64,000 nt of DNA from Candidatus Terrybacteria bacterium RIFCSPHIGHO2_01_FULL_48_17 (GCA_001822835.1 MHSS01000013.1:10321-74320), one strand, 5' to 3'; shown: positions 4,849 through 59,085, numbered from the stretch's first letter. A program made the numbers and translations. The notes: generated by a model not told the origin, from the sequence alone.

Positions 4849-4925
4849 CCAATGCCCCAAGCTCAAATATCCAATTCGTCGAATTGGTAATTATGATTTA
4901 GACATTCATCGGACATTTATTGGAT

Positions 4926-4953
4926 ATTGGGATTTTGACATTGGGATTTTCAC
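4926..4953. repeat. Intergenic repeat family A (ATTGGGATTTTGACA x2), partial copy, 7 nt upstream of the mreB start
   Basis: attgggattttgacattgggattttcac is the reverse complement of the tandem aaatcccaatgtcaaa units at 33804-33834 and resembles 10196-10215. Confidence 0.5.
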
Positions 4954-10195: not shown

Positions 10196-10315
10196 ATGAA
10201 AATCCCAATGCCAAATGAAATTTCAAGTTCCAATATCAAAAACCGAACGCGCGAACCTTGGACATTATGTCATTGGGCATTTATTTGGCATTTGAGCTTG
10301 GGCATTCCGCGTGTA
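10196..10315. repeat. Intergenic repeat family A, full-length copy (about 120 bp) between ssb and rpsR
   Basis: gaaaatcccaatgccaaatg ... catttatttggcatttgagctt parallels 33804-33920 (aaatcccaatgtcaaa ... atttatttgacatttgagcttt). Confidence 0.5.
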
Positions 10316-11261: not shown

Positions 11262-12284
11262 TTATATACGAAAAGTCAGGACATCGCCATCTTGCACAGT
11301 ATACTCGCGTCCCTGTGTTTCGACAAGCCCCTTCTCGCGTGCCTGTGTAAATCCTCCCGCGGCAACTAATTGGTGCCACGGCAGCGCATCGCACTTTATG
11401 AATTTTTCGGCAAAATCACTATGCACCATTGCTGCAGCTTCTACGGCCGTGGTACCTGTTTTGCAGAGCCATGATCTAATTTCGTTTCCACCGGCTGCGG
11501 TGAAAAAGGTTATAAGCGAAAGGAGTTTTTTTGCTGCCGCAATAATATCTGGGGCGCAAGATATAAAGCCAAGCTCGCGCAATTCCTCCGGAGAGAGTGA
11601 TTGGGCGTCAAGTTCCGTTTGCGCATCCAGCACACTGGCAGCAATATCTCTTGGCGAGGGTTTTGCGCCATTGAGAACAATTAGCATTGGTTTCGCAGAC
11701 AAGAGGGGAACTTCCTTCAAATAATCTACTACTGATATATTTCCTCTCACGTGTTGTTGCGCAGAGATGCCACGCCCAAATGCCTCGCGCATATCTTTCC
11801 AGACGGCAAGTGCTTGCTGCGCGGTTTTTTCTCCCGACCGGGCCATGGCCTCAAATCGTTGAACCTCCTTCTCTGCGGTTTCAAGATCTTTCATAATAAG
11901 CTCTGTCTCGAGTATAGATAAATCATCTTTTGGCTGGGGACTATCGGCAATATCTTTTGTAACAAAATTGCGGAGTACAACAATAATGACATCGGTTTCT
12001 CTGATATGCGCCAGAAATTGGTTGCCCAACCCCTCGCCTTGGTGCGCGCCTTTCACTAAGCCGGCAATATCTATTACCTCAATAGTTGCTGGGGTGCGTT
12101 TTGCGATACCGAGGATTTCTGCAAGCTTATCGAGACGTTCGTCTAAAATGGCGATCACGGCTCGGTTAGGGTCAATTGTGGTAAAAGGGTAAGGCGCAAT
12201 AGCGACAGATTGTCTAGAGAGCGCCGAAAAAAGCGTTGATTTGCCCGCGTTGGGAAGGCCGACGATACCTAGGGAATAGGGCAT
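11262..12284 (-). CDS. ychF: Ribosome-binding ATPase YchF (Obg-family GTPase with C-terminal TGS domain)
   Basis: GIVGLPNAGKSTLF Walker A, DIAGLVKGA, and C-terminal TGS (..GFIKAEV-like: FIKCDALPWHQLVAAGG...REKGLVETQGREYTVQDGDVLTFRI). Confidence 0.9.
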   Translation of the reverse strand: MPYSLGIVGLPNAGKSTLFSALSRQSVAIAPYPFTTIDPNRAVIAILDERLDKLAEILGIAKRTPATIEVIDIAGLVKGAHQGEGLGNQFLAHIRETDVIIVVLRNFVTKDIADSPQPKDDLSILETELIMKDLETAEKEVQRFEAMARSGEKTAQQALAVWKDMREAFGRGISAQQHVRGNISVVDYLKEVPLLSAKPMLIVLNGAKPSPRDIAASVLDAQTELDAQSLSPEELRELGFISCAPDIIAAAKKLLSLITFFTAAGGNEIRSWLCKTGTTAVEAAAMVHSDFAEKFIKCDALPWHQLVAAGGFTQAREKGLVETQGREYTVQDGDVLTFRI

Positions 12285-12311
12285 AGGGTACAGGGTTTAG
12301 GGTACAGGGAT
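12285..12311 (+). repeat. G-quadruplex-type motif (GGG-N4)x4, repeat family C
   Basis: aGGGtacaGGGtttaGGGtacaGGGa, directly abutting the ychF start codon (on the non-coding side) and 34 nt upstream of suhB. Confidence 0.4.
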
Positions 12312-12344
12312 TAGTTCCATAACGCAACGTGGTAGAATAAAATC

Positions 12345-14633: not shown

Positions 14634-15479
14634 TTATAGTTCTGGTTCAACTTGTATTGTTGCATCAGCCCGGAGTTTTTCTTCCAATGCCTTGCGCACC
14701 GTTTGTACGATTGGGTATGCGTTTTCAATGGTCGTGTGGGCTTTTACCCGAATGTGAAGGTCAATAAAAGGATCTTCGGCGGTTCCGCGGCTTCGAATAT
14801 GGTGGCATTCGATTACTCCGGGAATTTTTTCGACAACCGTTCGGATTTCTTGCTCGTCAAATACTTTTGCATCAATGAGTATTTGAATATTCTCCCAAAT
14901 GAGCTCGCGGACGGCAATAAAGATGATAAGCCCGGCAATCGCAAGTGCGGCAAGTGGGTCCAGAACCGATACTCCTATTTTGAGTGCGCCGTAACCTACT
15001 AAGACGGCCCCTCCGGCAAAAAGGTCGCTTACTGTGTGCGTCGCATCTGCCTTAAGCAATCGTGATTGCCAACGTTTCCCAAGGAAACGCTCGATACTGG
15101 CAATGAGGGCATTTAAAACGAGCGTTCCTACAAGTAGCCAGAAGGCGATGGGAGAGAACACAACGGCGCTTCCCGATATAAGTTTTTCAATGCCTTGCTG
15201 TGCCACCACCACTCCACCAGCGAAAACCATAAGGCCGATGATCACTACGGCGAGTGGCTCAAAACGTTTATGTCCGTACGGATGTGCTTCGTGTGCGGGA
15301 CGAGCTGCGAGCCAAATACCGAAAATTGCGACGATATTCGCCCCACTATCAGAGAACGCATGAATCGCATCGGCCAGAATACTTGAACTTCCGGTAAGCA
15401 CATGAAGCACGATTCGCGTGATTGCAACACTAAGGTTTAAAGCAAGGATAATACCAAGCGCGGTAATCTGTCGCTTCAT
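14634..15479 (-). CDS. Cation diffusion facilitator family transporter
   Basis: Six TM segments, the HAFSD-x-GANIVAI signature in TM2, and a C-terminal cytoplasmic domain (...IHHIRSRGTAEDPFIDLHIRV). Confidence 0.85.
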   Translation of the reverse strand: MKRQITALGIILALNLSVAITRIVLHVLTGSSSILADAIHAFSDSGANIVAIFGIWLAARPAHEAHPYGHKRFEPLAVVIIGLMVFAGGVVVAQQGIEKLISGSAVVFSPIAFWLLVGTLVLNALIASIERFLGKRWQSRLLKADATHTVSDLFAGGAVLVGYGALKIGVSVLDPLAALAIAGLIIFIAVRELIWENIQILIDAKVFDEQEIRTVVEKIPGVIECHHIRSRGTAEDPFIDLHIRVKAHTTIENAYPIVQTVRKALEEKLRADATIQVEPEL

Positions 15480-16575: not shown

Positions 16576-16681
16576 AAAACGAGGGAATAGGAACCAGGGA
16601 ACAGGGAATAGCGGAATTGACTCTTTATTTTGATTCTGTTATCATTCTAGCGAAGTTGTTTGACAAAGGAAAGGAATAGAA

Positions 16682-20833: not shown

Positions 20834-22666
20834 TTACTTTGGCACGCGCTTGGTAACCACGTACCACTTTTCTATAGTAGCAAATCGGTGCTGGGATGCG
20901 GGTAAAAATTCAATTGTAACCTCTTTAACCCGGTTATCAACGATATAGTGGAAGCGCTCGCTCCACAAGAAAATAGCCGGAAGATCTTGTGCAATAAGTT
21001 GCTGCACTTTTTGTGCAACACCTTGACGCATATCGGGATCTTGCAGTTTGCGTCCCTCTTGTAAAAGATCATCAACATTGTCGTTATCATAGAGCGCGAG
21101 ATTTCTTCCCGGGTCGAATTTTTGGGAGGAATGAAATAGCGTAAAAAGATCCGGATCCGGAAAAATATCCACACCAACAAGTAATGCCGTGTAGCTTCGC
21201 TGCTCGATCGTATCTCGAAGCTCTGCCGCGGGTAACACCTGAATGTCCACCCCAACGCCAACAGCCCGCCATTGCTCCGCAATCGTTTGTGCTACATTTT
21301 CAAGCTCGCCCTCCGTGGTAGTTATGGTAACGCGAAGCTCAATCACATTTGGTTCTTCCCCTTTGCGACGCATACGCGGCGTTTCTCCCTCGGTATTGTC
21401 GCTGGTATTTTCCTCGGGGAAGGCCCACCCATCTGCCTCTAAGATATTGCGGCTATGTTCCGGCGCGTAATCATATACGGGAAGTTCGTTTGTAAAACCC
21501 TTCACTTTTTTGGGTAAAGGGCCATTAAGAACTTCACCCGCTTCTTGTCCTCCCAGCGTCTCTAGAATCTTATTTTTGTCTGTGGCATAGGCCAGAGCTT
21601 TTCGGACTACGGAATCAGCCAGAGCTTTAGACAGGGTTTGGTTAAAATAGACCGCAAATATGCGTGGCATTGGAGGGCGCATGACATGAGTTCCTGGTGT
21701 GAGGGTTATATCATTAAGCATGCTTTCAGAAATCCCCGACACCGCATCTAATTCTTGCCGGGTAAATGCGGAAAGCGCATCTTGGGGTGTCTCGAAGAGT
21801 CGCAGTATTACCGAGTCGATATATGGTTGTCGACGCGAGGACTCGTTGCGTTCGAGGGTAAATGATATAAATACCCCCTCGCGTGTACGTTCAAATTTTG
21901 CAAGTCGATACGGTCCAAGCCCAACCGGTTTAAGATTAAGCTCTGAAAGCGAAATATTTTCCGGCTCAACGTCTTGCCAAAGGTGTTTGGGCAGGATTCC
22001 AAGGGTCGTCGCATGCAGCAAAGGCGCGAATGGTGCGGGAAGCGTAAACCGAACCGTACGCTCATCCATCGCTTCTGCTTCTACCCCGAGCCATTGAGTA
22101 AAGAAAGGGGAGCGCACAGCAGGATTTTGTACAAGCTGAACAGTAAAAATGACGTCTTCTGCCGTTACTTTTTCTCCGTCAGGCCATTTAAGATCGTTTT
22201 TGAGAGTAAATTCGATAACCTTCCCAAACTCGCCTAAAGCATATTGTTCTGCAATATCTGGTTCGAGTTCCCCCTCGGCGTTATAACGCATAAGCCCGGC
22301 ATAGGTGAGTACAACCAAGTCGCGATCAGCCGTGGTCGCGGGAATTACAGGGTTGATAAAGAGCACTTGGCCGGAAACTCCCTCGGTAAAAGTACCGCCG
22401 CGCGCGGAAACCGTTACGGTTTCACGCACGTATAATACCGATCCGATGAGTATCAGTCCTGCCAGAGTCAGGGCAATGCCTGTGCTCAATGCTACGCGTT
22501 CGCGAAACGTGAGGGATCGCGGAAATGCAAAAAGCTGCCGCAAGGCAGGCAGTTTCCGTGTTGATTGTTTCCAGCCAGGAAAGTTGAGTGCTTGAGAAAG
22601 AAAAAGAGCGGTACGCCTCTTAAGCGAGAACGCCGCCTTTTTAAGGGCTTGAAATACGGGGGGCAT
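20834..22666 (-). CDS. ABC transporter substrate-binding protein, family 5 (peptide/nickel type), membrane anchored
   Basis: About 600 aa, N-terminal TM anchor, conserved family-5 segments (VLTYAGLMRYNAEGELEPDIAEQY, DGEKVTAEDVIFT). Start moved to the internal ATG at 22666 to avoid secG. Confidence 0.75.
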   Translation of the reverse strand: MPPVFQALKKAAFSLKRRTALFLSQALNFPGWKQSTRKLPALRQLFAFPRSLTFRERVALSTGIALTLAGLILIGSVLYVRETVTVSARGGTFTEGVSGQVLFINPVIPATTADRDLVVLTYAGLMRYNAEGELEPDIAEQYALGEFGKVIEFTLKNDLKWPDGEKVTAEDVIFTVQLVQNPAVRSPFFTQWLGVEAEAMDERTVRFTLPAPFAPLLHATTLGILPKHLWQDVEPENISLSELNLKPVGLGPYRLAKFERTREGVFISFTLERNESSRRQPYIDSVILRLFETPQDALSAFTRQELDAVSGISESMLNDITLTPGTHVMRPPMPRIFAVYFNQTLSKALADSVVRKALAYATDKNKILETLGGQEAGEVLNGPLPKKVKGFTNELPVYDYAPEHSRNILEADGWAFPEENTSDNTEGETPRMRRKGEEPNVIELRVTITTTEGELENVAQTIAEQWRAVGVGVDIQVLPAAELRDTIEQRSYTALLVGVDIFPDPDLFTLFHSSQKFDPGRNLALYDNDNVDDLLQEGRKLQDPDMRQGVAQKVQQLIAQDLPAIFLWSERFHYIVDNRVKEVTIEFLPASQHRFATIEKWYVVTKRVPK

Positions 22667-22682
22667 GGAAAAAAGCCGCACT

Positions 22683-22904
22683 TTAAGAGAACAAGAGATT
22701 TGCAACGGCAATTGCTAAAAATCCGATTGCGAGTGCGATTGTTGCGCGAAAGAGGAGCTTTTCAACCCCGCGACGAGAAGCAAATACATTTCCTTCGCCG
22801 CCAAAGGCAGACCCAAGACCGGTTCCGCGTTGTTGCAACAAGATCGTACTGATAAGCAAAACCGCGAAGACGATTTGTAGGATATTCAGAATTAAATTCA
22901 GCAT
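22683..22904 (-). CDS. secG: Preprotein translocase subunit SecG
   Basis: 73 aa, two TM helices, central LLQQRGTGLGSAFGGEG and RRGVEKLLFRAT, diagnostic of SecG. Confidence 0.8.
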   Translation of the reverse strand: MLNLILNILQIVFAVLLISTILLQQRGTGLGSAFGGEGNVFASRRGVEKLLFRATIALAIGFLAIAVANLLFS

Positions 22905-25944: not shown

Positions 25945-28821
25945 ATGCCCGAACCAGACGTAATTCGTATCAAAGGTGCCCGCGTCCATAATCTCAAAAA
26001 CGTGGATGTGGACATTCCGCGCAATAAGCTCGTGGTGATCACGGGCATTTCTGGTTCGGGAAAGTCGTCGTTGGCGTTTGATACATTGTATGCGGACGGC
26101 CAGCGCAGATACGTTGAATCGTTGTCTGCCTACGCGCGCCAATTTTTGGGCGCCATGGAAAAGCCGGACGTGGACACCATTGAAGGGATTTCACCCGCAA
26201 TCGCCATTGACCAAAAAAGCGTGTTGCGCAATCCGCGCTCCACGGTAGGCACCATTACCGAAATTTACGATTACTTGCGGCTTTTGTTTGCACGCGTAGG
26301 AACGCCGCATTGTCCTGAATGCGGACGCGGGGTATCTGCACAAACGCCAACGCAGATCGTGCGACAAATCTTGGCTTTGCCCAAAAAAACAGAAATTTCT
26401 CTTTTGGCTCCTATCGTCCGTGAACGGAAAGGAGAGTATCGCTCACTTCTTGAAGAGATTGGCCGTGCTGGGTTCCGCCGTCTGCGCCTTGATAGCGAGA
26501 CCTTGCCGCTGGAAGAAGCACTAGAAAGGAAGCTTGAGCGCTACAAAGCCCACTCTATTGAAGTTGTGATTGATCGTCTAACGGTCGGGGGTTCAAAAGA
26601 TGACAAACTGCGCATTTCCTCATCAGTAGAGACGGCCCTGAAAATGGGTAAAGGAATACTCATTGTTAATAAATCCAAAGCTCAAAGCACAAAATCTAAA
26701 AACGATACCGAGGATTTATTGTTTTCGGAGGCGTTAGCGTGTGAACACTGCGGGATTAATCTTCCGCCCATTGAGCCGCGCACTTTCTCATTTAATTCTC
26801 CGCATGGCGCATGCCCCGTATGTACCGGCATCGGCTATAAATTGGAGGTTGACTCAAAATTGGTTATACCAAACCCGCGTCTCTCAATTGCCGAGGGCGC
26901 GATTAAAGCGTGGATGTCTGCATCACATCGGGTAGGAAGGCAATCGTGGTACTGGTGGATGCTCGAGGAGCTTGCCCAAAAACTTGGATTTGATGTAAAT
27001 ACGCCATGGGAGAAGCTTTCCGCCAAAGTGCAAAAAGTGGTGCTCTATGGAGAAGAACAGGATACGGGGGAAAGGATACAGGGGACAGATGGCACCGACG
27101 GGAGATTCGAAGGGGTGATCCCAAACTTAATGCGGAGATGGAAGGAAACGGATTCTGATTGGACGCGCGGCGAGATTGAAAAATATATGCGCATTCGGAT
27201 ATGCGAGGCCTGCCAAGGGAAACGCCTTCGGCCTGAAGCGCTTGCCGTTAAAATCCACGGCCATACTATTGATGAAGTAACAGCGCTGAGCATTGAAGCT
27301 CTCGATGCTTTTTTCCGTACGTTTCTTTTCGGAAAAGAAAAATTAAGCGCAAACGAAGCAAAAATCGCAAAACCAATCGTAAAAGAGGTATTAAATCGTC
27401 TTAAGTTTTTATTAGAGGTTGGGTTGCCGTATCTTGCGCTTGATCGTTCGTCGACCACATTAGCAGGCGGCGAAGCACAACGGATACGGCTCGCAACGCA
27501 AATTGGCACGCGTCTGACGGGGGTGCTTTATATTTTGGATGAACCCTCCATCGGGCTTCATGCGCGCGACCAGGAGCGACTCATCGAAACGCTGAAGGAA
27601 TTACGCGACTTGGGCAATACGGTTGTAGTGGTTGAGCACGACCCACAGACGATCAGGGCGGCAGATTGGGTTATTGATGTCGGTCCCGGAGCAGGGAAGC
27701 ATGGCGGCCGGATTACGTTTTCCGGAACACCAAAAGAGCTTTTTCGATCAAAAACGTTAACCGGTGAGTATCTTTCGGGAAAGAGAAAAATCGCTGTTCT
27801 TCCAACAGGAAAACAGAAAGAAAAAGGAGAAACGAAGTATTTGGTTGTGAAGGGCGCGCGCGAACACAACCTGAAACATATTGATGTTTCGATTCCGCTT
27901 GGAAAATTTGTGTGTGTTTCTGGCGTTTCCGGATCGGGCAAGTCATCTTTGGTCAACGATATTTTGGGTCGGGCTCTCATAAGATATTTTTGGAAGGCAA
28001 AAGATGAGCCGGGAGCGCACGCCAGTTTGGAGGGTCTTGAATATTTGAATAAAGCAATCATTGTTGACCAATCACCCATAGGTCGCACACCACGTTCAAA
28101 TCCGGCAACATATACGGGTGCATTTACGCCCATTCGCGACCTTTTTGCATCAACGAAAGAAGCGAAGGTGCGTGGTTATGGCGCCGGCCGTTTTTCATTT
28201 AATGTAAAGGGCGGCAGATGCGAAACGTGTCAAGGTGAGGGAATGCAAAAAATCGAGATGCAGTTTTTGCCGGACGTGTGGGTTGAGTGCGAAGAGTGCA
28301 ACGGCACGCGTTATACCAAAGAGGCGCTTGAGATTGAATGGCATGGAAAAAACATCGCCGAAGTTCTGACTATGACGATTGAGGAAGCAGCAGCATTTTT
28401 TTCCTCGATTTCATCAGTATCTACAAAATTGCAGACCCTTACGGACGTAGGGTTAGGTTATATGCAGCTTGGACAGCCAGCCACCACGCTTTCCGGTGGT
28501 GAGGCGCAACGGGTGAAACTTGCGACAGAGCTTGCGCGGAAAGCAACCGGCAAAACGCTCTATATTTTGGACGAACCGACAACGGGCTTGCACTTTTCCG
28601 ATATCGAAAAATTATTGAAACTTTTGCGCGGCCTGGTCGAAAAGGGTAATACTGTTTTGGTGATCGAACACAACCTTGATGTCATCGCTAATGCCGATTG
28701 GGTGATTGATTTAGGGCCCGAAGGGGGAGAGGGTGGAGGGCACATTATTGCCAGCGGGAGGCCTTTGGATCTTATAAAAAATAGCAAAAGCTACACAGGT
28801 CAGTTTTTGAGAAAAAGGTGA
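25945..28821 (+). CDS. uvrA: Excinuclease ABC subunit A
   Basis: Two ABC ATPase modules ([17 protein letters not shown]; [13 protein letters not shown]), zinc-finger Cys clusters (CEHCG...; CETCQGEG...CEECNGTRY), 958 aa. Confidence 0.95.
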
Positions 28822-30556: not shown

Positions 30557-31540
30557 ATGCTAAAACATATTTTATCCCAATCAATTCTTGCGACGGTGGC
30601 GTATGCGGATGCGCTAAACATGCCGCTTACCGCAATGGAGGTATGGCGGGGATTGGTTGGGGTACAGGGCACAGGGTACAGGGGACAGGGAATAGAGAAT
30701 AGGGCAAAGAACGCTTCGAGTTTTTCAGAGATTTTCTTTATGCTCAAATTACTAAAAGAGCAAAAGAAAATCTCGGAGCAGCGCGGCTTTTATTTTTTGC
30801 CAGGGAAAGAGGATTTGGTTGCGGAGCGCTTGTGGCGCATGCGGGTGGCGGACGAAAAATGGAAAAAACTGATGGGTATTGTGCGGTGGTTGCGCGCGGT
30901 TCCTTTTTTGCGGGCGGTTTTTGTTACCGGTTCTTTGGCGTTAAATAACACGCGCGAAAATAGCGACTACGATATTTTTTTGGTAAGCGCTCCCGGCCGC
31001 ATTTTTACTGTACGGTTTTTTGTAACACTTATGTTAAAAATGTTTGGCATGTATCGTTCGGATGCATGTGTAGCGGATCACGTCTGTCCCAACCACTATG
31101 TTACCGAGCGAAGTTTAGCGATTCCGTTCCATTCGCTCTACACCGCCCATATTTTTGCAACATGCGTGCGCACATGGAGCGTTGACCAAGATATCAAGGA
31201 ACGGTTCATGCATGTAAATAACTGGATACATGACTATATACAAATAGCGCCAGAAATCCCTCGCGCAAATCGGCATACGCTTCCGGATATATGGGTTGCG
31301 AAAATAATACGCGGTATTGGCGAGGTTACGTTGGGCCCGCCCGTGGGCGGGGTATTGGAAGGGATGGCTCGCTTCCTCCAGCTTGTCAAAATCCGCGCAA
31401 ATCCCAAAACAAAGTATCCTGGCAGCGGACACGTGGTCGCAAACGATGAGATGTTGGCATTTCATCCAAGCTCACCCGAATTCGGGGTACTTGACAAATA
31501 TCATACTAATATGCTACAATATAAAACGTCAGTAGATTGA
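30557..31540 (+). CDS. Pol-beta-superfamily nucleotidyltransferase domain protein (hypothetical)
   Basis: GSLALNNTRENSDYDIFLV fits the hG[GS]-x10-DxD minimal NTase motif. An alternative start at ATG 30740 lies downstream of a GGGTACAGGG repeat tract. Confidence 0.55.
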   Translation: MLKHILSQSILATVAYADALNMPLTAMEVWRGLVGVQGTGYRGQGIENRAKNASSFSEIFFMLKLLKEQKKISEQRGFYFLPGKEDLVAERLWRMRVADEKWKKLMGIVRWLRAVPFLRAVFVTGSLALNNTRENSDYDIFLVSAPGRIFTVRFFVTLMLKMFGMYRSDACVADHVCPNHYVTERSLAIPFHSLYTAHIFATCVRTWSVDQDIKERFMHVNNWIHDYIQIAPEIPRANRHTLPDIWVAKIIRGIGEVTLGPPVGGVLEGMARFLQLVKIRANPKTKYPGSGHVVANDEMLAFHPSSPEFGVLDKYHTNMLQYKTSVD

Positions 31541-33340
31541 GAAAGAAGGAATCCAAAAGAGAGGCGAAAACGGCTGTGGCCTGCGAAGGGATGAGGGCTA
31601 CGGTTCCCACGGTCTATGTTTTGCGGAGCCTGCGATGCGCGGAAGGACGAGCGGGGTGGAATAGCTCGTTTCTGGGGCGCCATCCTATCGCAATCTCCGT
31701 CCCCAAGCCGCTGGGCCAAAGAGGAAGAGCCGCGCCTCTCAAGGGCGATGGGATTGCCTAACACAATCCTTCGCTTCTCTTTTGGGTTTCTTATAGAGCC
31801 CCCTTGACAATGATGGTCGAGTTGTGCTAAGAGGAGTATACGATTTTAAAGATTAAATTGAGGTTCCTTCGGTTCTCTCCCTGCATTTATCATTCATCAT
31901 TAAGAATTATCACAAGACGAATGCAGAGAGAGGGCCGGATGGGCTCTCTTCTGATGAAATCCAGACGGCTGATCACCGTCTGGTCGGGTCCCAACCGTTG
32001 TTGCGCCCAAAAGGGGCATGCCCCGCCATCTTGCGGGGAGGAGCTATCCAAATCGCCCCTCGTCGGGTTTGCCTGGCGAGTATAAGCGAAGAGGAAGAGT
32101 TCTGCGGCAGCGGGGAGGCTGTGCCCGTTTATCGCCCTGTTGGCGATGGCGGGATCCCGCCCCGACGCTCTTGGGGACGCTCAAGAGAAGAAGGGGAAAT
32201 GCCTGATTGATCTGTCAAACAGTGGGGGCAAGCCGGACTTTCTTTCTGTCCCCCCTAAAGCAGCAGGGAGCGCAAGCGCTTGTGCGCAACGCTCGTCACG
32301 GCCCGGCGGTGGTCGAGAAGTTCTCTGCTGCAATTTAAGCACCTTTTCAAAAGAACGGATCCGAGGGAAACGATAACCTCGGAGCCCTCTCCCTGAACCA
32401 GTTTCATTTTCTGAACTCTGTACCCTGATGTCTGTACCCTGTTAACTGATTCAGAGAGAGGGACGCCCGTCTCTGCCGGTCTGGCTGGCACGTGTGGTGC
32501 CGGAAATGCTGGCTCCCGCCCGGCTCGATTGGAGCCGAGGGGCCTCTACGGGCGACCTCGCGCGATGGCGGCTAACCCGAGCCCTTTCCCGGGGCAAGCC
32601 CCGTCCGCGGCGGGGTGTGCAGGTTTCGGGCGATGCCGCAAAAAAGGTAGAATCATCTGAGGAGCGTGGAACCATTAAGGTTCCCGGGAAACTTGTGGGA
32701 AAGCGCTCCTCGGCCGGTCATAGTTCTTTGTTAGGGGATAAGCCCATTCGAGCCGATAAGTTCGGCTCTCCCTCCCTACATTTTTTTTCGAAAGCTTACG
32801 TGAAGAGCAGAAAGCGCCAACTATCTTTTTTTAACGCTTCTCTCTTATCACTTATTACTTTAAAGAATGTAGAGAGGGGGAGGATCTCTTTGCCGCAAGC
32901 TTCGGCGGAGAGGGTAGGGCCCGGGAATTCCTGCCCGAGTGCTACGAAAACGGCGCTCGAAAGCCTCGACCCCGCTTAATGAGGGTCGCTCCAGGGGGCT
33001 GCACAAACGCGGTCACTAAGTGCGGCGGTCAGTTACCGTCGCCGGAGCGGTCCAGCTCTTATTGCCGGAGCATCATAATCTCCGGCACCCCTCTCTGCAT
33101 TTATCATTCTTCATTTGTCATTGATAAATACAGAGAGGGGTTCTCACAACCCCATATTTTTACCCAGGGTCCGCCTGTAAAAAGGTGGCAAATGCCTAAA
33201 GGGCCCTAATGGTGTTTATACGCCCCGGTGTTGGCTCCAAGAGTCGATGCCGGGTCTTTCTTTATATACGAACTATGGGGGTCCGACCCCCATAGTATTT
33301 TTAGAAAAGCCTGCCGAAGAGTTTATCTGGGCTGGCTGAA
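31541..33340. other. 1.8-kb ORF-poor, GC-rich non-coding region with three related hairpins (CTCTCTG/CAGAGAG stems)
   Basis: No ORF over 161 aa on either strand, and none with recognisable motifs. Hairpins at 31866-31925, 32450-32474 and 33085-33137 (19-bp stem). Two hairpin loops begin CATTTATCATTC(A/T)TCATT. Confidence 0.4.
33274..33303 (+). terminator. Rho-independent terminator closing the ORF-poor region
   Basis: CTATGGGGGTCcgaCCCCCATAG tattttta. Confidence 0.55.

Positions 33341-33803: not shown

Positions 33804-33806
<3 letters not shown>
33516..33806 (+). CDS. groES: Co-chaperonin GroES
   Basis: [14 protein letters not shown]...[24 protein letters not shown] 96 aa. Confidence 0.93.
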
Positions 33807-35568
<1,762 letters not shown>

Positions 35569-36216: not shown

Positions 36217-36221
36217 AAAGA

Positions 36222-36355
36222 TACAATCACCAAGATACAAGGCACAAACAAATTTCAATAATCAACCTTCAAGAAACAAACGGGGTTTCGGTTATTGGGA
36301 TTTGAGATTTGTTTGGTTATTGTCTCTTGTATCTTGTTTCTTGTGGCGACGCTTT
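36222..36355. repeat. Intergenic repeat family B (about 130 bp, CAAGATACAAG / CTTGTATCTTG inverted termini)
   Basis: aagatacaatcaccaagatacaagg...cacaaaca...ggttattg..tttgtttggttattgtctcttgtatcttgtt. Second copy at 56878-56990. Confidence 0.5.
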
Positions 36356-47672: not shown

Positions 47673-47699
47673 GAGATCTCATATGGTATAATAAAAATA

Positions 47700-48860
47700 A
47701 TGGGCGCAAACCGCGGCTTCACGCTCCTGGAGCTCATTATCGTTATCGCAATCCTTGCGATTTTGGCGGTGATTATTACATTAGCATTGAACCCCGCGGA
47801 ATTACTGGCTCGATCTAGAGATGCGCAGCGGCTTTCTGATTCGCGAACCCTCTCCACGGCGCTTCAGCTTTATACGGCAGAGGGCTCCAATCCCGATTTA
47901 GACGGCTCCATTTTAAACAATTGCGAGAACGGGGTAAGCCCTAACGCTTCTATTTTTATAAGTGGTGACGGACAAGCAGGGAATGATATTACAGACACCA
48001 CCTTTTCGGGGAGGGGCACTCCTGACGTCTTGGTGGCAAATCAGGATAATATGAGCATAAATGGATCGGGATGGATTCCAGTCGATTTCGCGACCGCACA
48101 TAGCGGTCTTGCTAATCTTCCTCTCGATCCTCGGTTTTCCGTGGCGAATCTAGCAGATGTAACCGAAGATGATTTTTTATATCTCTATGGTTGCGGGGAA
48201 AACCCTTTGGTATTTGAACTGAATACAAACATGGAATCCGATAAATTCTCCAATGGCGGCTCCGAAGATAAGGAATCCAAGGACGGCGGCAACACATCTA
48301 ATCTTTATGAAATAGGTACTGACTTATCTGTTATTGGGGGAGGCGGGGGCGCGGTGAGTTATAAAGTATTCATAACCTCCCAACAATATTATGGGAATGC
48401 TATGGGAGGGATAAGCGGGGCAGATTCTAAATGTCAAGCACGCGCCAACGCGGTAGGCCTTGGTGGAGTTACATGGAAAGCGTGGATTGTCGCAGATGGT
48501 TCGAGTCCGTCTAGTGCTTTTGTACACTTTGCCACGCCGATCTATCGGATCGATGGAGCACAAGTAGTAGATAACTGGGCAGATCTTATAGATGGAACAA
48601 TTGTTAACCCTATTAATGTTACGGAAAACGGGTCTTCGATCGGCAATGTGCAGGTTTGGACTGGTGATGACGGAAATACTATTGGGGAAGTTCCAGATAC
48701 AGTCAGGTCTTGTGCAACCAATTGGGATAATGCCACCGGCGCCTCAACGGGCTGGTACGGCCTTTCCGGATCTACCAATAGCCAATGGGTAGGAGGGAAT
48801 TTCGGAAATTGTAGTAGTTGGAATTTTCGGCTTTACTGTTTTTCGCAATCACCCTATTGA
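47700..48860 (+). CDS. Type IV pilin-like protein (prepilin-type N-terminal cleavage/methylation domain), 386 aa
   Basis: MGANRG|FTLLELIIVIAILAILA is the class III signal peptide with G-1, F+1, E+5. Large Gly/Ser/Asn-rich C-terminal domain. Confidence 0.75.
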   Translation: MGANRGFTLLELIIVIAILAILAVIITLALNPAELLARSRDAQRLSDSRTLSTALQLYTAEGSNPDLDGSILNNCENGVSPNASIFISGDGQAGNDITDTTFSGRGTPDVLVANQDNMSINGSGWIPVDFATAHSGLANLPLDPRFSVANLADVTEDDFLYLYGCGENPLVFELNTNMESDKFSNGGSEDKESKDGGNTSNLYEIGTDLSVIGGGGGAVSYKVFITSQQYYGNAMGGISGADSKCQARANAVGLGGVTWKAWIVADGSSPSSAFVHFATPIYRIDGAQVVDNWADLIDGTIVNPINVTENGSSIGNVQVWTGDDGNTIGEVPDTVRSCATNWDNATGASTGWYGLSGSTNSQWVGGNFGNCSSWNFRLYCFSQSPY

Positions 48861-54077: not shown

Positions 54078-55439
54078 ATGGAAGAATTTGACGTTATTGT
54101 GATCGGCGCAGGATCGGGTTTGCAGGTTTCTGCTGCAGCCAGCCGCAAGGGCATGAAAGTTGCTGTGGTTGAAGAGGGACCCATGGGTGGAACCTGCCTT
54201 AACCGCGGCTGCATTCCTTCAAAAATGTTGATTCACGCTGCGGAGATTGCACAGACCGTACAAAACGCGGCAAAATTTGGTATTGATGCTGAATTGAAAG
54301 GTATTCGTTTTGCAGAGATTACGAAAAGAGTGGCTGCAACAGTTGACGAAGAGGCAACAGATATTGAAGAAGCCAACAAGAAAAATCCAAATATTACCTT
54401 GTTTAAGGCACGCGGGAAGTTTGTCGGTGAAAAAACGCTTGAGATTGAGGGGAAGCAAATCAAAGGGGAAACCATTGTGATTGCAGCCGGAACCCGTCCG
54501 GTGGCGCCCCCGATTCCCGGGCTTGATCACGTAGAATATCTTACCAGCGACAACGGCCTTCGGCTTGAAAAACTGCCAAAAAGCATGGTGATGGTAGGCG
54601 GCGGCTATATTGCTTCCGAGCTTGCACACTTTTTCGGGTCGTTGGGAACGGAAATGACTATTATTGAAATGGCACCGAAGCTGTTAGGCAGATCAGACAG
54701 CGATATCGCCAATACCTTTACCGAAGCATTTTCACAACGCTTTAACGTGTTGCTTGAACACAAGGTTATTAAAGTTGCAAAAGGCGGCGAGGGCGTCATA
54801 GTGACGGTGCAGGACAAGGACGGGAAGGAGAAAACCGTTTCGGGCGAGACGCTCTTTTTGGCAGTAGGCCGCAGGCCCAACACCGATGTTTTGGATTTGG
54901 AAAAAACTGGAGTTGAACTAACAGACAAGGGGTATGTAAAAACAAACGAATATCTTGAAACGAACATGCCCGGCATTTGGGCATTGGGCGACATTGCCGG
55001 CAAATGGTTTTTCAAACACTCGGCAAACCTTGAGGCAGAGTATGTGTGGCGCAATGCGTTATTGGGAGAAAAAGCGCCAGTTGATTATTCTGCCATACCC
55101 CATTCGGTCTTTACCGACCCTCAAATTGCGGGAGTCGGCGCGACAGAAGACGAATTGAAAACTGCCGGAACGCCGTATAAAAAAGGAGTGTATAAGTACC
55201 GCCATACCGGCATGGGGCAGGCAATGATGGAGCTTCACGGCTTCGTGAAAGCGCTGGCAGACGGGAAAGGAGAAAAAATCCTCGGCTGCCAAATTTTAGG
55301 GCCCGATGCATCAACGCTTATTCATGAGGTAGCCGTTGCAATGAAAAATGGGTTAACCGTACAGCAACTTGCCAAAACCGTGCATGCGCACCCCGCGCTT
55401 TCAGAGGTAGTGCAGCGTGCGTTTTTAGCGATTCGATAA
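54078..55439 (+). CDS. lpdA: Dihydrolipoyl dehydrogenase family pyridine nucleotide-disulfide oxidoreductase
   Basis: GAGSGL FAD motif, redox-active GGTCLNRGCIPSK, NAD motif VGGGYIASELA, C-terminal dimerisation domain with HAHP. Confidence 0.85.
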   Translation: MEEFDVIVIGAGSGLQVSAAASRKGMKVAVVEEGPMGGTCLNRGCIPSKMLIHAAEIAQTVQNAAKFGIDAELKGIRFAEITKRVAATVDEEATDIEEANKKNPNITLFKARGKFVGEKTLEIEGKQIKGETIVIAAGTRPVAPPIPGLDHVEYLTSDNGLRLEKLPKSMVMVGGGYIASELAHFFGSLGTEMTIIEMAPKLLGRSDSDIANTFTEAFSQRFNVLLEHKVIKVAKGGEGVIVTVQDKDGKEKTVSGETLFLAVGRRPNTDVLDLEKTGVELTDKGYVKTNEYLETNMPGIWALGDIAGKWFFKHSANLEAEYVWRNALLGEKAPVDYSAIPHSVFTDPQIAGVGATEDELKTAGTPYKKGVYKYRHTGMGQAMMELHGFVKALADGKGEKILGCQILGPDASTLIHEVAVAMKNGLTVQQLAKTVHAHPALSEVVQRAFLAIR

Positions 55440-55480
55440 AAAGAATTCCCGTTGAGCGTGGGAATAATATATAAGTTTAC

Positions 55481-55506
55481 AACCCGTTTTTGAGCGGGTT
55501 TTCTTG
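55481..55506 (+). terminator. Rho-independent terminator
   Basis: AACCCGtttttgaGCGGGTT ttcttg. Confidence 0.6.
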
Positions 55507-55568
55507 ACAAAGAAGGGGACGTTGGCGCATTATGGGAAGACGATATTTTACAAACAAAAAAGGAGCAT

Positions 55569-56270
55569 TTGATGGAAAAGGAAGATCAGAAGGATCCGCG
55601 AGTGATACTTGCAGGTCTTATTGTCATCGTTTGGGTGTTGGGACTTATCGGATTTTTTATCTGGGCGTGGGCCTTTAACGGCGCTTCCCATTTTATCCCT
55701 CATGTGATTGGGGTTGCTTTTGCAGGAAGCTCCGTTGCCTCCGAAAGATTTACGCTGGAAGCAGTTAAAGAATCGTTGCTAAGCTTTTTGGGTGCAGAAA
55801 TGTTAGTCGGTTTTCTTATGGCCGCAGCGATTCTTGTGCTCACGAGACGCCCCACCACGCTTCATCCGACATTGCATCGTCCCTCGGTTTCTGTTTCTTT
55901 GTTGGGCTTTAGCTTTAATCTACTTGGAGCTGCCCTTCGCGAGGAAGTAGTATTTCGTTGGTTGCCCTTGGTAGCCATCGCGGCCATTTTGCCCGATACT
56001 GTCTCTGTTACGACCAGTTTAATTCTTGGTTCCTCTGTAATTTTCGCATTGGAGCATTTGAGGAATTTCGATCCGGAAGATCGGCACTGGATTATGGTGG
56101 TGTCTCATTTTGTAAGCGGCCTTTTCTTCGTATACGCATTTTTACGATGGGGATTTGCAGGAGCTGTTTTTGTGCATTACTTCCATAACTTTTTTGTGAT
56201 GATAGGGCCGGTAGCAGCATTTAGAGCATATCCCAAGGCACTATCTTTCCTTGAATTGCGGAAACCATAA
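55569..56270 (+). CDS. CPBP family intramembrane metalloprotease (CAAX protease/Abi-like)
   Basis: EEVVFRWLPL (EExxxR), FALEHL (FxxxH), HYFHNF (HxxxN/D) in successive TM helices. Confidence 0.75.
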   Translation: MMEKEDQKDPRVILAGLIVIVWVLGLIGFFIWAWAFNGASHFIPHVIGVAFAGSSVASERFTLEAVKESLLSFLGAEMLVGFLMAAAILVLTRRPTTLHPTLHRPSVSVSLLGFSFNLLGAALREEVVFRWLPLVAIAAILPDTVSVTTSLILGSSVIFALEHLRNFDPEDRHWIMVVSHFVSGLFFVYAFLRWGFAGAVFVHYFHNFFVMIGPVAAFRAYPKALSFLELRKP

Positions 56271-56276
56271 AAAGAA

Positions 56277-56301
56277 CCCGCCACACGGCGGGATTTTTAT
56301 T
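56277..56301 (+). terminator. Rho-independent terminator
   Basis: CCCGCCacacGGCGGG atttttatt. Confidence 0.55.
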
Positions 56302-56420
56302 ATGTGATAATATGTTCACGAGATTAAGCAGGTCATGCTCTTTTTTAATATGCTATATCCTATTTTTCATATTCTTATTGGCTTGTCTAGCTCCTAATGC
56401 GTTTGTTATAGTACGAGCAT

Positions 56421-56876
56421 ATGAAAAAACCATTCTCCTTTATTTTTCGAGCTCTTGATCGCTTAGCCCCGCCGCAGCGTGCCTATGCGCATTGCGATGT
56501 GCCCTGCGGCATTTATACGCCGGAGCCCGCACAAACCGCGGCCGATACCGTTGCCAAGATGGTTGAAAAGATACAGGCGCTTCCGAAAGAGAACCCGCCG
56601 ACAGAGGACACGCGAAATTCTTTCGTGCGCATGGTTGTGACAAAAGAAGAACATGCGGAAAAATGCAAGCGGGAATTGTTAATTCTGTGGACCGATTTTT
56701 TCAAACAGGAACATCTTGCCATGTTCCCCGATTTGCACCAAACGTTTTGGAAAGCAGCAAAGCTTTGCTCAAAAAACAAACAATCAGTAGATGCTGAGGC
56801 AGCAAAGCAATTGCAAGAAGCGGTTGCGCATATTGCCGAGATATTTGCAAAGGCGAAAGCAGCAGTAAGCAAATAA
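56421..56876 (+). CDS. sodN: Nickel superoxide dismutase precursor (NiSOD)
   Basis: Leader MKKPFSFIFRALDRLAPPQRAYA followed by HCDVPCGIYTPEPAQ (the His-Cys-x-x-Pro-Cys-Gly-x-Tyr Ni-hook) and ILWTDFFKQEHLAMFPDLHQ four-helix core. Confidence 0.85.
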   Translation: MKKPFSFIFRALDRLAPPQRAYAHCDVPCGIYTPEPAQTAADTVAKMVEKIQALPKENPPTEDTRNSFVRMVVTKEEHAEKCKRELLILWTDFFKQEHLAMFPDLHQTFWKAAKLCSKNKQSVDAEAAKQLQEAVAHIAEIFAKAKAAVSK

Positions 56877-56877
56877 C

Positions 56878-56990
56878 CAAGGAACAAGATACAAGATAAC
56901 AAACAAGATACAAATACCAAGACACAAACACCGCGCGAGTTTGGTTATTGATTATTGGAGCTTGTTTGGTTATTGTTTCTTGTATCTTAT
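56878..56990. repeat. Intergenic repeat family B, second copy (between sodN and sodX)
   Basis: aacaagatacaagataacaaacaagatacaaa...cacaaaca...tttggttattg...tttgtttggttattgtttcttgtatctt. Confidence 0.5.
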
Positions 56991-57270
56991 GAATATGTTT
57001 CGCCGTTTCATTATTGAAGGCATGAGCATGTTTCCGGCTTTTCGGCCTGGCGATCGAGTTGTAGCTTTGCGCAAGGCCGCATATCAGGCCGGGGACGCTG
57101 TGGTGGTTAAAGATCCCCGCGATGGGAGGATGTTGTTAAAACGCGTGCGCGCACACCGGGAAAATTCCTATTTTTTGGTGGGGGATAACCATGAGCAAAG
57201 CACTGATAGCCGTATGTTTGGCAGTGTTTCAAAAAACGCTATTTTAGGAAAGATTGTCGTAAGATATTAG
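56989..57270 (+). CDS. sodX: NiSOD maturation peptidase (signal peptidase I/S26-like)
   Basis: IIEGMSMFPAFRPGDRVV (catalytic Ser in a GxSMxP-type box), VVKDPRDG, LVGDNHEQSTDSRMFG (SPase box E-like). Start at ATG 56989 because upstream codons are repeat sequence. Confidence 0.7.
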   Translation: MNMFRRFIIEGMSMFPAFRPGDRVVALRKAAYQAGDAVVVKDPRDGRMLLKRVRAHRENSYFLVGDNHEQSTDSRMFGSVSKNAILGKIVVRY

Positions 57271-57411
57271 AGGTATTATTCGCAATGGTTTTGTAGCATA
57301 ATACCCGTAAAGCGTGTGGCTTGCGATAACGAGTGCCGTTCCTTTAGGGACGGAATTTTCTTTTAAGGCCATTCGTGTAAAGGTGAAAAAAATGGTACAA
57401 TAAAAGAAAGA

Positions 57412-59085
57412 ATGCCTGTTCCAATAGATCAGCTGAAAAAAGTATTGCAGTCAGGAAAATTCATTTCCGACGCTGATTTAACGCGGGCAGAAGGCCTTAC
57501 CAAGACCCGCAAAAAACCTTTTGAGCAGATCTTGGTTGAGGAAAATCTTATTGCCGATGAGCATCTTGGAAAGTTGGTTGCCGACATTCTTGGCGTCCCT
57601 TTTGTGAATTTAAGGGAAGTGGAAATTGATCCCGGAGTGCTGCGAATCGTTCCCGAAGTTGTTGCGCGTTCACAAAATGCTATTGCCTTTGAGCGTACTA
57701 AAGACGGCCTCAAAATCGCCATGGCCGATCCAAAACAGCTTGAATTTATCAGCAATCTTGAAAAGAAAGTCGGTGAGAACACAGGGGTGTATTATGCAAC
57801 ATTGCATGATATCCATGCGGCCTTTGGCCGCTATAAAAAAGAAGTAGGCGAGGCCTTTCAGGAAATTCTGGAACGCGAGCGGGCCAGTCGCACAAAAGCC
57901 ACAGAAGACAAAGAGGCGGTAGGAGTCAAAATTGTTGATTCACTCCTCGCTTATGGGTATGAAAATCGTGCCTCTGATATCCATCTTGAGCCGCAGGACG
58001 AGCGGGTGATAGTTCGATTTCGTATCGACGGAGTGTTACATGATGTTACGGAACTTCCCAAAGATTTACATGAACTTGTGGTCGCGCGCATTAAAGTGAT
58101 GAGTCGGCTACGTACGGATGAGCATCGTTTGCCGCAAGACGGAAAACTTTCCTTCAGTCAGGAAGGGGATCGTGTGGATGTGCGCGTGTCGATCGTGCCT
58201 ATTGTTGAGGGTGAAAAAGTAGTATTGCGCCTATTGGCTGAGGGGGCACGGCAATTTTCGCTTGAGAATCTTGGATTTTCTGAAAAAAATCTTGAGCTTG
58301 TGCGAGCGGCAGCCCAAAAGCCACACGGGATGATTTTAGTCACCGGCCCTACCGGTTCGGGCAAAACGACAACGCTGTACGCGGTGCTTAAAATGTTGAA
58401 CCGTCGGGAAGTAAATATCGCAACCATCGAAGATCCCGTTGAATATGATATTGAGGGTGTTAATCAGATACAGGCCAATCCCGCAATCGGTATTACCTTC
58501 GCAAACGGTTTGCGCTCAATTGTTCGGCAGGACCCCGATATCATTATGGTGGGAGAGATTCGGGATCAAGAAACGGCAGACATTGCAATAAACGCTGCGT
58601 TGACGGGCCACTTGGTACTTTCGACCTTTCATACTAATGACGCAGCCACTGCCTTACCGCGTCTTTTGGAAATGGAAATTGAGCCATATCTTGTTGCCTC
58701 TACCGTTATTGTGGTCGTTGCGCAACGATTGATACGAAGGATTTGTAACCGTTGCGTGGAGAGCCATATGATATCTCCCGAAGAGCTTGAGAAGATAGTG
58801 CCGCAAGAAGCCCGTTCTGTTTCGTTACAACAACCTCTCCGTTTTTTTAGCGGTAAGGGGTGTAATGCGTGCGGGGGGACTGGTTTTATTGGTCGAGTTG
58901 GGATTTTTGAGGTTTTGACGATGACCGATGCAATTCGAGATTTGGTATTGAGGCGAGCACCGAGCGGCGAAATTGAGCAAGAAGCCAAGAAAGAGGGAAT
59001 GATAACCATGTTCGAAGATGGATTTGCAAAAGCACAGGCGGGCATCACCACGATAGACGAAATCCTTCGTGTGACCCGTGCCTAA
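57412..59085 (+). CDS. pilB: Type IV pilus assembly ATPase PilB (GspE family)
   Basis: N-terminal GSPII domain. Walker A LVTGPTGSGKTTTLYA. Asp/His boxes. Tetracysteine CNRC...CNACGGTGF. Confidence 0.9.
   Translation: MPVPIDQLKKVLQSGKFISDADLTRAEGLTKTRKKPFEQILVEENLIADEHLGKLVADILGVPFVNLREVEIDPGVLRIVPEVVARSQNAIAFERTKDGLKIAMADPKQLEFISNLEKKVGENTGVYYATLHDIHAAFGRYKKEVGEAFQEILERERASRTKATEDKEAVGVKIVDSLLAYGYENRASDIHLEPQDERVIVRFRIDGVLHDVTELPKDLHELVVARIKVMSRLRTDEHRLPQDGKLSFSQEGDRVDVRVSIVPIVEGEKVVLRLLAEGARQFSLENLGFSEKNLELVRAAAQKPHGMILVTGPTGSGKTTTLYAVLKMLNRREVNIATIEDPVEYDIEGVNQIQANPAIGITFANGLRSIVRQDPDIIMVGEIRDQETADIAINAALTGHLVLSTFHTNDAATALPRLLEMEIEPYLVASTVIVVVAQRLIRRICNRCVESHMISPEELEKIVPQEARSVSLQQPLRFFSGKGCNACGGTGFIGRVGIFEVLTMTDAIRDLVLRRAPSGEIEQEAKKEGMITMFEDGFAKAQAGITTIDEILRVTRA

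Follow-up and report, generated by a model that had tools for sequence, protein, structure and literature searches.

Whether two adjacent genes still work as one operon when a repeat element stands between them is the question raised by a locus in Candidatus Terrybacteria bacterium RIFCSPHIGHO2_01_FULL_48_17, from which a stretch of 64,000 nucleotides was analysed (MHSS01000013.1:10321-74320; hereafter the window, with positions counted from its first nucleotide). An initial annotation had proposed that the two genes encode a nickel superoxide dismutase (NiSOD) and its dedicated maturation protease (sodN and sodX), that the organism was CPR-like, and that such a module was noteworthy there. 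The organism was placed correctly: Candidatus Terrybacteria belongs to the Parcubacteria group, and the sequence is a MAG from the Rifle aquifer. Here we examine the two genes, the module's occurrence in other genomes, and the hairpin between the genes together with its relatives elsewhere. The features discussed are collected in Table 1.

Table 1. Coordinates of features in the 64,000-nt window
Feature	Position	Strand	Remarks
Hairpin, murA-family/mreB	4849-4950
Hairpin, ssb/rpsR	10199-10299	-
Orphan family-5 binding protein	20834-22711	-	Generic; neighbours PGI, SecG, holin-like protein
Hairpin, groES/groEL	33805-33916
Hairpin, lemA/M48-htpX	36217-36342
Pyridine-nucleotide-disulfide oxidoreductase	54078-55439	+	Dihydrolipoyl dehydrogenase- or mycothione reductase-like
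CPBP/Rce1-like intramembrane protease gene	55569-56270	+	Between the oxidoreductase gene and sodN
Intrinsic-terminator-like GC-rich stem-loop, T-runs on both strands	56277-56292	.	Closes the CPBP/Rce1-like gene; 5' limit of the sodN unit
Promoter-like site, TTGTCT-18 nt-TATAGT, TG before the -10	56383-56412	+	8 nt between the -10 and the sodN ATG
sodN, pre-NiSOD	56421-56876	+	151 aa; profile matches and structure-chain alignment
sodN leader	56421-56489	+	23 codons
sodN Ni-hook HCDVPCGIY	56490-56516	+	Residues 24-32
Imperfect palindromic hairpin repeat ("family B"), sodN/sodX	56877-56988	.	112 nt; folding, copy search
sodX, minimal S26 Ser/Lys peptidase	56989-57270	+	93 aa; profiles and motif alignment
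sodX Ser13 codon	57025-57027	+	Ser box GMSMFP
sodX Lys51 codon	57139-57141	+	Lys box LLKRV
sodX box E, G65-R75	57181-57213	+	GDNHEQSTDSR
Intrinsic-terminator-like stem-loop and T-run	57336-57353	+	Ends the sodN-sodX unit; the pilB promoter follows

The NiSOD precursor and its cleavage site

Translation of the first open reading frame (ORF) gives a precursor that begins MKKPFSFIFRALDRLAPPQRAYA and continues directly into the hook HCDVPCGIY. The protein matches the Pfam family Sod_Ni (PF09055) with 146.4 bits (cut-off 25) and the NCBIfam model TIGR02753, "superoxide dismutase, Ni", with 156.1 bits (cut-off 90), and GenBank already lists it under the latter name (OHA47903.1/OHA53614.1). In a phmmer comparison with the PDB, His24 pairs with residue 1 of the mature Streptomyces NiSOD chains 1q0d and 1t6q/1t6u, so that the Ni-hook lies exactly at the predicted cleavage site. 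The proposed position of the hook, immediately after a 23-residue leader, therefore holds, and the possibility raised at the outset that the HCDxPCG block might lie away from that site is answered by the same alignment. On this evidence the gene is sodN, with its motifs in place and its cleavage site aligned on solved mature chains. The mature protein has 128 aa if cut, as predicted, after Ala23 (AYA↓H). In an alignment of 18 close CPR homologues, position -1 is Ala in all, position -3 is A, V or L, and position -2 is aromatic; within the hook, H, C, D, P, C, G and Y never vary. By its sequence, the end of the leader reads as a signal-peptidase-type A-x-A site.

The GenBank model of the protein starts at an ATT 7 codons later, which gives 144 aa and a 16-residue leader and leaves the cleavage site unchanged. 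We prefer the ATG at 56421, because 8 nt separate it from the end of a promoter-like site that includes an upstream TG. A transcript from this site would probably be leaderless or nearly so.

The leader of Streptomyces SodN has 14 aa, compared with 23 (or 16) here, and Terrybacteria SodN further differs by an 8-residue insertion after helix 1. Two residues that hydrogen-bond to His1 in Streptomyces NiSOD, Glu17 and Arg47, are replaced in Terrybacteria SodN by Ala40 and His78, both of which are invariant in the clade of the Terrybacteria protein. What the S. coelicolor/S. seoulensis pair (SodN, SCO5254, structures 1t6u and 1q0d; SodX, SCO5255) shares with the Terrybacteria pair is the sequence HCDxPCGxY at the mature N-terminus, an Ala at position -1, and a leader for a cognate S26 peptidase to remove (PMC3919588). 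The genomic setting differs as well: sodN and sodX are co-directional in Terrybacteria, whereas in Streptomyces the intergenic region carries the sodN 5' end (PMC3919588), and nothing in the Terrybacteria window points to regulation by Nur or s-SodF.

A minimal SodX-type peptidase

The downstream gene lies on the same strand as sodN and adjoins it at a distance of 112 nt. Its product scores 61.9 bits with Peptidase_S26 (cut-off 22.9), 62.8-65.9 bits with the signal peptidase I model TIGR02227 (cut-off 47), and 62.0-62.8 bits with TIGR02754, sod_Ni_protease (cut-off 63.25). When translation begins at ATG 56989, TIGR02754 is the top match, tied with TIGR02227, and its 62.8 bits fall 0.45 below the cut-off while positions 3-89 of the 90-position model are covered. 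We take ATG 56989 as most likely the true start; a mechanical ORF listing begins the gene at TTG 56941 (56941-57270), a position within the repeat whose use would add a hydrophobic, repeat-encoded N-terminal stretch of 16 aa, and we consider this longer form an artefact of the listing. No Shine-Dalgarno (SD) sequence was found upstream of sodX.

The Ser box, Lys box and box E all align with those of the solved type I signal peptidases 4nv4 and 4me8. This agrees with the Ser box and box E recognized by the initial annotation, and the catalytic dyad, which it had left to be checked, is present as Ser13 and Lys51. Only 10 residues stand ahead of the Ser box, likewise in most CPR homologues, and SodX thus has no membrane anchor. 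SodX is established as the cognate maturation peptidase that activates SodN (PMC8346466, PMC3919588). Judged by profiles and motifs, the downstream gene encodes a protease of this SodX type, an S26 enzyme with a Ser/Lys dyad, which is predicted to cleave pre-SodN.

Occurrence of the module and selection on its genes

A search of 5.8 billion proteins yielded 2128 SodN homologues (E <= 1e-5); those that rank highest carry the names Terrybacteria, Daviesbacteria, Magasanikbacteria and Wildermuthbacteria, and Roizmanbacteria and Levybacteria are also close. When one genome per GTDB species was scanned, at least 552 stretches were found to encode SodN relatives; among the best 80 of these, 29 bear CPR names, and the others are mostly Chloroflexota, Dormibacterota, DPANN or other archaea. 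In 71 of the same best 80 loci, sodN has an S26 homologue no more than 4 kb away. This homologue is directly downstream on the same strand in about 56-59 and upstream on the opposite strand in 12, and a minimal S26 gene after sodN recurs in many phyla.

Several Patescibacteria NiSOD clades have been reported as nested in Chloroflexota, an arrangement attributed to horizontal gene transfer (HGT) (preprint 10.1101/2021.01.12.426412), and SOD genes were found in 66-83% of groundwater Patescibacteria MAGs (10.1101/2021.07.28.454184). Terrybacteria SodN is a member of the Patescibacteria/Chloroflexota clade (10.1101/2021.01.12.426412), in most of which sodX follows directly downstream as it does here; the sole difference is a 112-nt hairpin in place of an overlapping or few-nt junction. 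The view that a NiSOD module is noteworthy in CPR fails, since the module is annotated in GenBank, Patescibacteria NiSOD has been published, and CPR names are frequent among the best GTDB matches. The window holds a standard two-gene NiSOD module, ordinary and known, and adds one more example. Many ultra-small groundwater CPR bacteria have, as already published, a cheap iron-independent defence against superoxide, and the carriage of NiSOD implies that these bacteria are exposed to oxygen at least at times.

We know of no repeat element between sodN and sodX in Prochlorococcus marinus MIT9313, where the pair is likewise a two-gene module in a small genome. The NiSOD of that strain belongs to a different clade from Terrybacteria SodN, and its activity depends on the cognate peptidase (Eitinger 2004, as cited in PMC8346466).

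Comparison with the 84% relative L003 gives a dN/dS of 0.20 (sodN) and 0.29 (sodX), which indicates that purifying selection acts on both genes in spite of the insertion. The two proteins diverge at different rates (57% amino-acid identity to L003 for sodX, 84% for sodN), and sodX evolves faster than its neighbours. The dS of sodN is 0.48 as against 1.0-2.1 in the flanking genes, from which it follows that the central part of sodN has been recently exchanged. In a sister population (L001/L002), SodN carries N66T at a residue that is otherwise invariant, and sodX of L001 has a 9-nt in-frame deletion in box E; these variants may reflect relaxed constraint in that population. The oxidoreductase gene upstream is a redox neighbour of sodN that is kept in L003, and the CPBP/Rce1-like gene is missing there at the corresponding position. 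Redox genes found near sodN in relatives encode NifU, cysteine desulfurase, DsbA/thioredoxin, glutaredoxin and DsbD.

Nickel supply in the window

A family-5 substrate-binding protein had been put forward as NikA-class, and this did not survive comparison with the models. The protein scores 87.5 bits with the NikA model TIGR02294 (cut-off 393), its best model is Opp4A (136 bits, cut-off 650), and no permease or ATPase gene adjoins it, nikBCDE included. Pfam scans of the 70 ORFs in the 64-kb window returned no nickel importer; a CDF efflux transporter is encoded at 14634-15479. Nickel uptake is neither supported nor refuted by these 64 kb.

A lineage-specific hairpin between sodN and sodX

The repeat that had been noticed between the two genes is real, and it takes up all of the interval between the sodN stop and the sodX ATG: the hairpin begins 3 nt past the stop and ends at the base preceding the ATG. 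CAA recurs every 7 nt in its 5' arm and TTG every 7 nt in its 3' arm. Folded as RNA, the spacer has a minimum free energy of -30.8 kcal/mol (z -3.1); as DNA the z score is -4.1, and -4.2 on the other strand. A related copy occupies 36217-36342, and 12-mers drawn from the element have 3-6 occurrences in the window, where 0.3 would be expected. The sodX frame is open across the whole element; a readthrough fusion of sodN and sodX was considered and rejected, as the two frames differ (568 mod 3 = 1).

Two assemblies of the 99% sister population carry the element without any difference. In relatives of 77-81% identity, the spacer between sodN and sodX measures only 2-9 nt, which marks the hairpin as a derived, lineage-specific insertion; a 75% relative has a 63-nt spacer with a 10-bp stem only. 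The stretch between the sodN stop and the Gly of the Ser box has a median length of 32 nt in 52 loci and measures 142 nt here; the two genes thus normally abut or overlap. The 112-nt hairpin displaces the stop/start overlap that normally couples them. A different hairpin, of the AATGCAAATT type (z -3.4), fills the junction in L003, again exactly from stop to ATG, and unrelated hairpins lie at the same junction in two other CPR lineages (L016, z -3.5; L055, z -3.7). The sodN-sodX junction has thus been colonised repeatedly by hairpins. Such elements mislead gene callers, with starts placed inside them both here (TTG 56941) and in L003 (ATG 5454).

Palindromic repeats in intercistronic positions are familiar from E. 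coli REP/BIME (as in malE-malF), enterobacterial ERIC, Neisseria Correia elements and the Rickettsia palindromic elements (RPE). The Terrybacteria spacer resembles them in being an imperfect palindrome of about 100-150 nt that is dispersed over transcribed intergenic sites within operons, it fits the description of a multi-copy intergenic palindrome of the REP/REPIN or MITE type, and, as with RPE, some copies elsewhere are translated in frame. It differs from them in its unrelated sequence and in its 7-nt-periodic CAA/TTG arms, and no transposase domain (RAYT, IS) occurs among the ORFs of at least 130 aa in the 64-kb window. Nor does it belong to an Rfam family: the whole window gave no match at gathering thresholds, and at E < 1 only a single chance match to a miRNA precursor (E 0.51).

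Transcription and the possible effect of the hairpin

Co-transcription of the two genes had been called into question because of the repeat. The doubt was reasonable in that a repeat does separate the genes, but the transcription signals argue otherwise: within the spacer (56877-56988) the signal scan picked up neither a promoter-like nor a terminator-like site, and terminator-like sites flank the pair. For these reasons sodN and sodX are most likely co-transcribed, with the transcript ending at the terminator at 57336-57353.

We hypothesize, and hold to be very likely, that sodN-sodX is a working operon that carries an intercistronic hairpin, and that SodX cuts pre-SodN after Ala23 to expose the Ni-binding His1. 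The sodN gene would be transcribed from the promoter that lies 8 nt ahead of its ATG, and translation would yield the 151-aa precursor. SodX, as a cytoplasmic S26 peptidase of 93 aa, would use Ser13 and Lys51 to cut between AYA and H, and the freed His1 would allow nickel to be bound by the N-terminal amine, the amide of Cys2, and the thiolates of Cys2 and Cys6. On the joint transcript, the 112-nt palindromic repeat that was inserted precisely at the junction of the two genes, after the stop of sodN and ahead of the start of sodX, would fold into a long hairpin between the cistrons. Its likeliest effect would be to modulate the relative expression of the two genes and not to abolish it, through mRNA processing or stability or through weaker translational coupling, and so to alter the SodN:SodX ratio. 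If REP, ERIC and Correia elements and the intercistronic RNase III sites of phage T7 are taken as models, an effect on mRNA processing or stability seems the likeliest. Alternatively, the stem may bring the sodN stop and the sodX start together and so preserve reinitiation. Enzyme activity of SodN, its supply with nickel and a role for the hairpin are what we infer from these features.

A different outcome would follow if the hairpin acted as a terminator or insulator that uncouples the two genes, so that sodX would either depend on a separate, weak promoter within the 3' arm or hardly be expressed. The hairpin is indeed long and stable at the folding energy given above, its 3' arm is U-rich, and by eye a TTGATT-17 nt-TATTGT sequence (56949-56977) can be found 11 nt before the sodX ATG that resembles short-leader promoters elsewhere in the window; the faster evolution of sodX and the box E deletion in L001 also speak for uncoupling. 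We nevertheless regard uncoupling as unlikely. The scan reports neither a terminator-like nor a promoter-like site in the spacer, the promoter seen by eye agrees at only 8/12 positions, termination would do harm within groES-groEL and rpsF-ssb-rpsR, both of which contain sister elements, and sodX at a dN/dS of 0.29 is still under selection.

The module might also be a recently transferred passenger that is non-functional here, whether for want of nickel import or because it is decaying. The low dS of sodN relative to its flanks, the reported repeated transfer of NiSOD into Patescibacteria (10.1101/2021.01.12.426412), the absence of a nickel importer from the 64-kb window and the L001/L002 variants at conserved positions all point in that direction. 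Against it stand two intact ORFs with all catalytic and metal-binding residues, dN/dS values well below 1 and a conserved redox neighbourhood, and the absence of a transporter says little when 64 kb of the genome are covered; a passenger module is accordingly rather improbable. Least probable of all, and hardly to be expected, is that the S26 gene encodes the general signal peptidase LepB or another S24/S26 protease and not a dedicated SodX. The profile scores lend this some colour, as TIGR02227 is passed and TIGR02754 is missed by a fraction of a bit, but LepB is difficult to reconcile with a protein of 93 aa that lacks a membrane anchor and covers nearly the whole TIGR02754 model, with a matching minimal gene after sodN in most of the best 80 genomes and in many phyla, or with a SodN leader that ends in an A-x-A site.

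A family of heptad-periodic hairpins

The hairpin family is the more interesting part of the locus than the NiSOD module. Five full hairpins of about 100-125 nt occur in the window, each between the co-directional genes of a classic pair (Table 1), and the arms carry CAA (5') or TTG (3') every 7 nt. The 21-nt terminal motif GGTTATTGTNTCTTGTATCTT was found in at least 120 contigs of JGI metagenomes, with a GC content of 31 to 60% among the matches listed. In 90 of the 124 motif instances listed the complementary arm lies within 260 nt, the modal spans being 95-145 nt, and the metagenome copies usually start 0-25 nt past a stop codon. In the best 80 named GTDB sodN loci the family-B motif had no match at up to 3 mismatches; six CPR loci among them contain 7-nt TTG-periodic runs. 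An alignment of 45 copies with MAFFT and RNAalifold gave no consensus structure, variable inner heptads and nested insertions breaking the alignment.

Fifty-eight copies could be scored for their setting: the neighbouring ORFs are co-directional for 43 of them, divergent for 9 and convergent for 6. We rejected an enrichment between co-directional genes, as 43/58 is in our judgement roughly what a gene-dense, strand-biased genome would give, and the elements are thus better described as intergenic in general than as strictly intercistronic. A role as replacement for the SD sequence was likewise rejected, with SD-like sequences preceding 11 of 34 genes that follow an element and 64 of 237 controls (27%), which is no difference; in the window, none of the five genes downstream of the hairpins has an SD sequence.

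Some junctions are shared with distant relatives. The motif is found at groES-groEL also in L109 (GroEL 56.5% identical), at lemA-htpX in L169 (58-61% identical; GroEL 67.7%), and just upstream of mreB in L147 (56.5% identical). Genomes whose proteins differ by about 40% thus have elements at matching junctions. Such copies would reflect either long retention or repeated colonisation.

A literature search of limited coverage returned no published description of such repeats in CPR, which is weak evidence of novelty. We tentatively raise the possibility, which we ourselves find somewhat doubtful, that the elements form an undescribed, widespread class of the form (NNNNCAA)n-loop-(TTGNNNN)n in CPR-like genomes that acts in intercistronic control at the RNA level, on processing, stability or translation, and is not merely selfish. 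Were such RNA-level control true, the copy between sodN and sodX would set the SodN:SodX expression ratio, and if the elements are conserved intercistronic signals, they would offer a handle on gene regulation in the large and barely known uncultured CPR.

Copies are also met within coding sequence. Half an element is read in frame within a Tgt-like ORF in L149, and in L096 and L166 the elements supply an N-terminal hydrophobic stretch.

Hairpin repeats at operon junctions

Five long imperfect hairpin repeats occur in the window, each filling the gap of a classic operon pair (see the table), and one of them, a copy of the palindromic family-B element, separates sodN from sodX. The five copies fit closely into their gaps, beginning 0-23 nt past the upstream stop codon and ending 0-15 nt before the downstream start, and their arms are periodic at 7 nt, with CAA in the 5' arm and TTG in the 3' arm.

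The 21-nt end motif of the family-B element, GGTTATTGTNTCTTGTATCTT, has exact matches in at least 120 metagenome contigs (L090-L209), and among the matches listed the complementary arm usually follows at a distance of 95-145 nt. Three contigs from distant relatives, whose proteins are 56-68% identical, carry the motif at the same junctions as in the window, namely groES|groEL, lemA|htpX and the position just upstream of mreB.

Certain copies are read in frame, a likeness to the Rickettsia palindromic elements: in L149 a half-element lies within a tRNA-guanine-transglycosylase-like (Tgt-like) ORF, directly ahead of the LFGIVQGG motif, and in L096 and L166 the elements encode an N-terminal polar-then-hydrophobic stretch resembling a signal peptide. 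The window also holds G-rich heptamer arrays of the GGGTACA/GGGAATA type, together with their complement, mostly at gene boundaries; by appearance they are a further variety of this type of periodic element, or half-copies of it.

Coordinates of repeats, motif examples, promoters and genes (window positions unless a contig is named)
Feature	Position	Context
Hairpin repeat	4849-4950	murA-family and mreB
Hairpin repeat	10199-10299	ssb and rpsR
Hairpin repeat	33805-33916	groES and groEL
Hairpin repeat	36217-36342	lemA and M48-htpX
Hairpin repeat	56877-56988	sodN and sodX
G-rich array	12258-12314	
G-rich array	16582-16611	
G-rich array	27060-27088	inside uvrA ORF
G-rich array	30646-30709	
G-rich array	32416-32442	
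21-nt motif	L109 5576-5596	
21-nt motif	L169 2122-2142	
21-nt motif	L147 4047-4067	
Extended -10	8215-8240	gene at 8238
Extended -10	12328-12347	gene at 12345
Extended -10	47680-47702	pilin-like gene at 47700
Extended -10	56404-56423	sodN
Extended -10	57380-57414	pilB
sodN neighbours	54078-56270	dihydrolipoyl-dehydrogenase- or mycothione-reductase-like flavoprotein; CPBP protease
Family-5 protein	20834-22711 (-)	orphan

Variation in sodN and sodX and possible transfer of sodN

Central sodN (56490-56740) is nearly identical in DNA to the corresponding part of the 84% relative L003 (5070-5320), with a dS of 0.48 as against 1.0-2.1 for the flanking genes, a sequence comparison suggesting that sodN has recently recombined or been transferred between the two lineages. 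In the 99% sister population, a 9-nt in-frame deletion within L001 3003-3275 removes T-D-S from SodX box E (window 57202-57210), and in both L001 and L002 sodN codon 66 (56616-56618) carries N66T, although 18 homologues show no variation at this residue; these variants may reflect relaxed constraint or strain variation.

In Streptomyces NiSOD, Glu17 and Arg47 form hydrogen bonds to His1. The aligned SodN residues 40 and 78 (56538-56540 and 56652-56654) are Ala and His, both invariant within this CPR clade, and the window protein further differs from the Streptomyces enzyme by an 8-residue insertion after helix 1.

Start sites and promoters

The GenBank sodN begins at an ATT at 56442 (144 aa) rather than at 56421, and automatic calls place the sodX start inside the repeat (TTG 56941 in the window; ATG 5454 instead of 5526 in L003), thereby adding repeat-encoded residues. 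These problems are caused by the region itself. At many window genes an extended -10 (TGnTAnnnT) lies just 6-10 nt ahead of the ATG with no Shine-Dalgarno sequence (SD), an arrangement which suggests that leaderless mRNAs would be frequent here; other genes, mostly operon-internal, have clear SDs.

Gene neighbourhood

The family-5 solute-binding protein, which the initial annotation had taken as NikA-class, scores far under the NikA, Opp and Dpp cut-offs, and neither an ABC permease nor an ATPase is adjacent to it. Redox genes always surround sodN-sodX, both in the window and in the relatives L087, L089, L210 and L212. The neighbours in relatives at 75-80% identity are cysteine desulfurase, NifU and DsbA/thioredoxin; L087 adds glutaredoxin and DsbD, and L212 a MarR/ArsR-type regulator.
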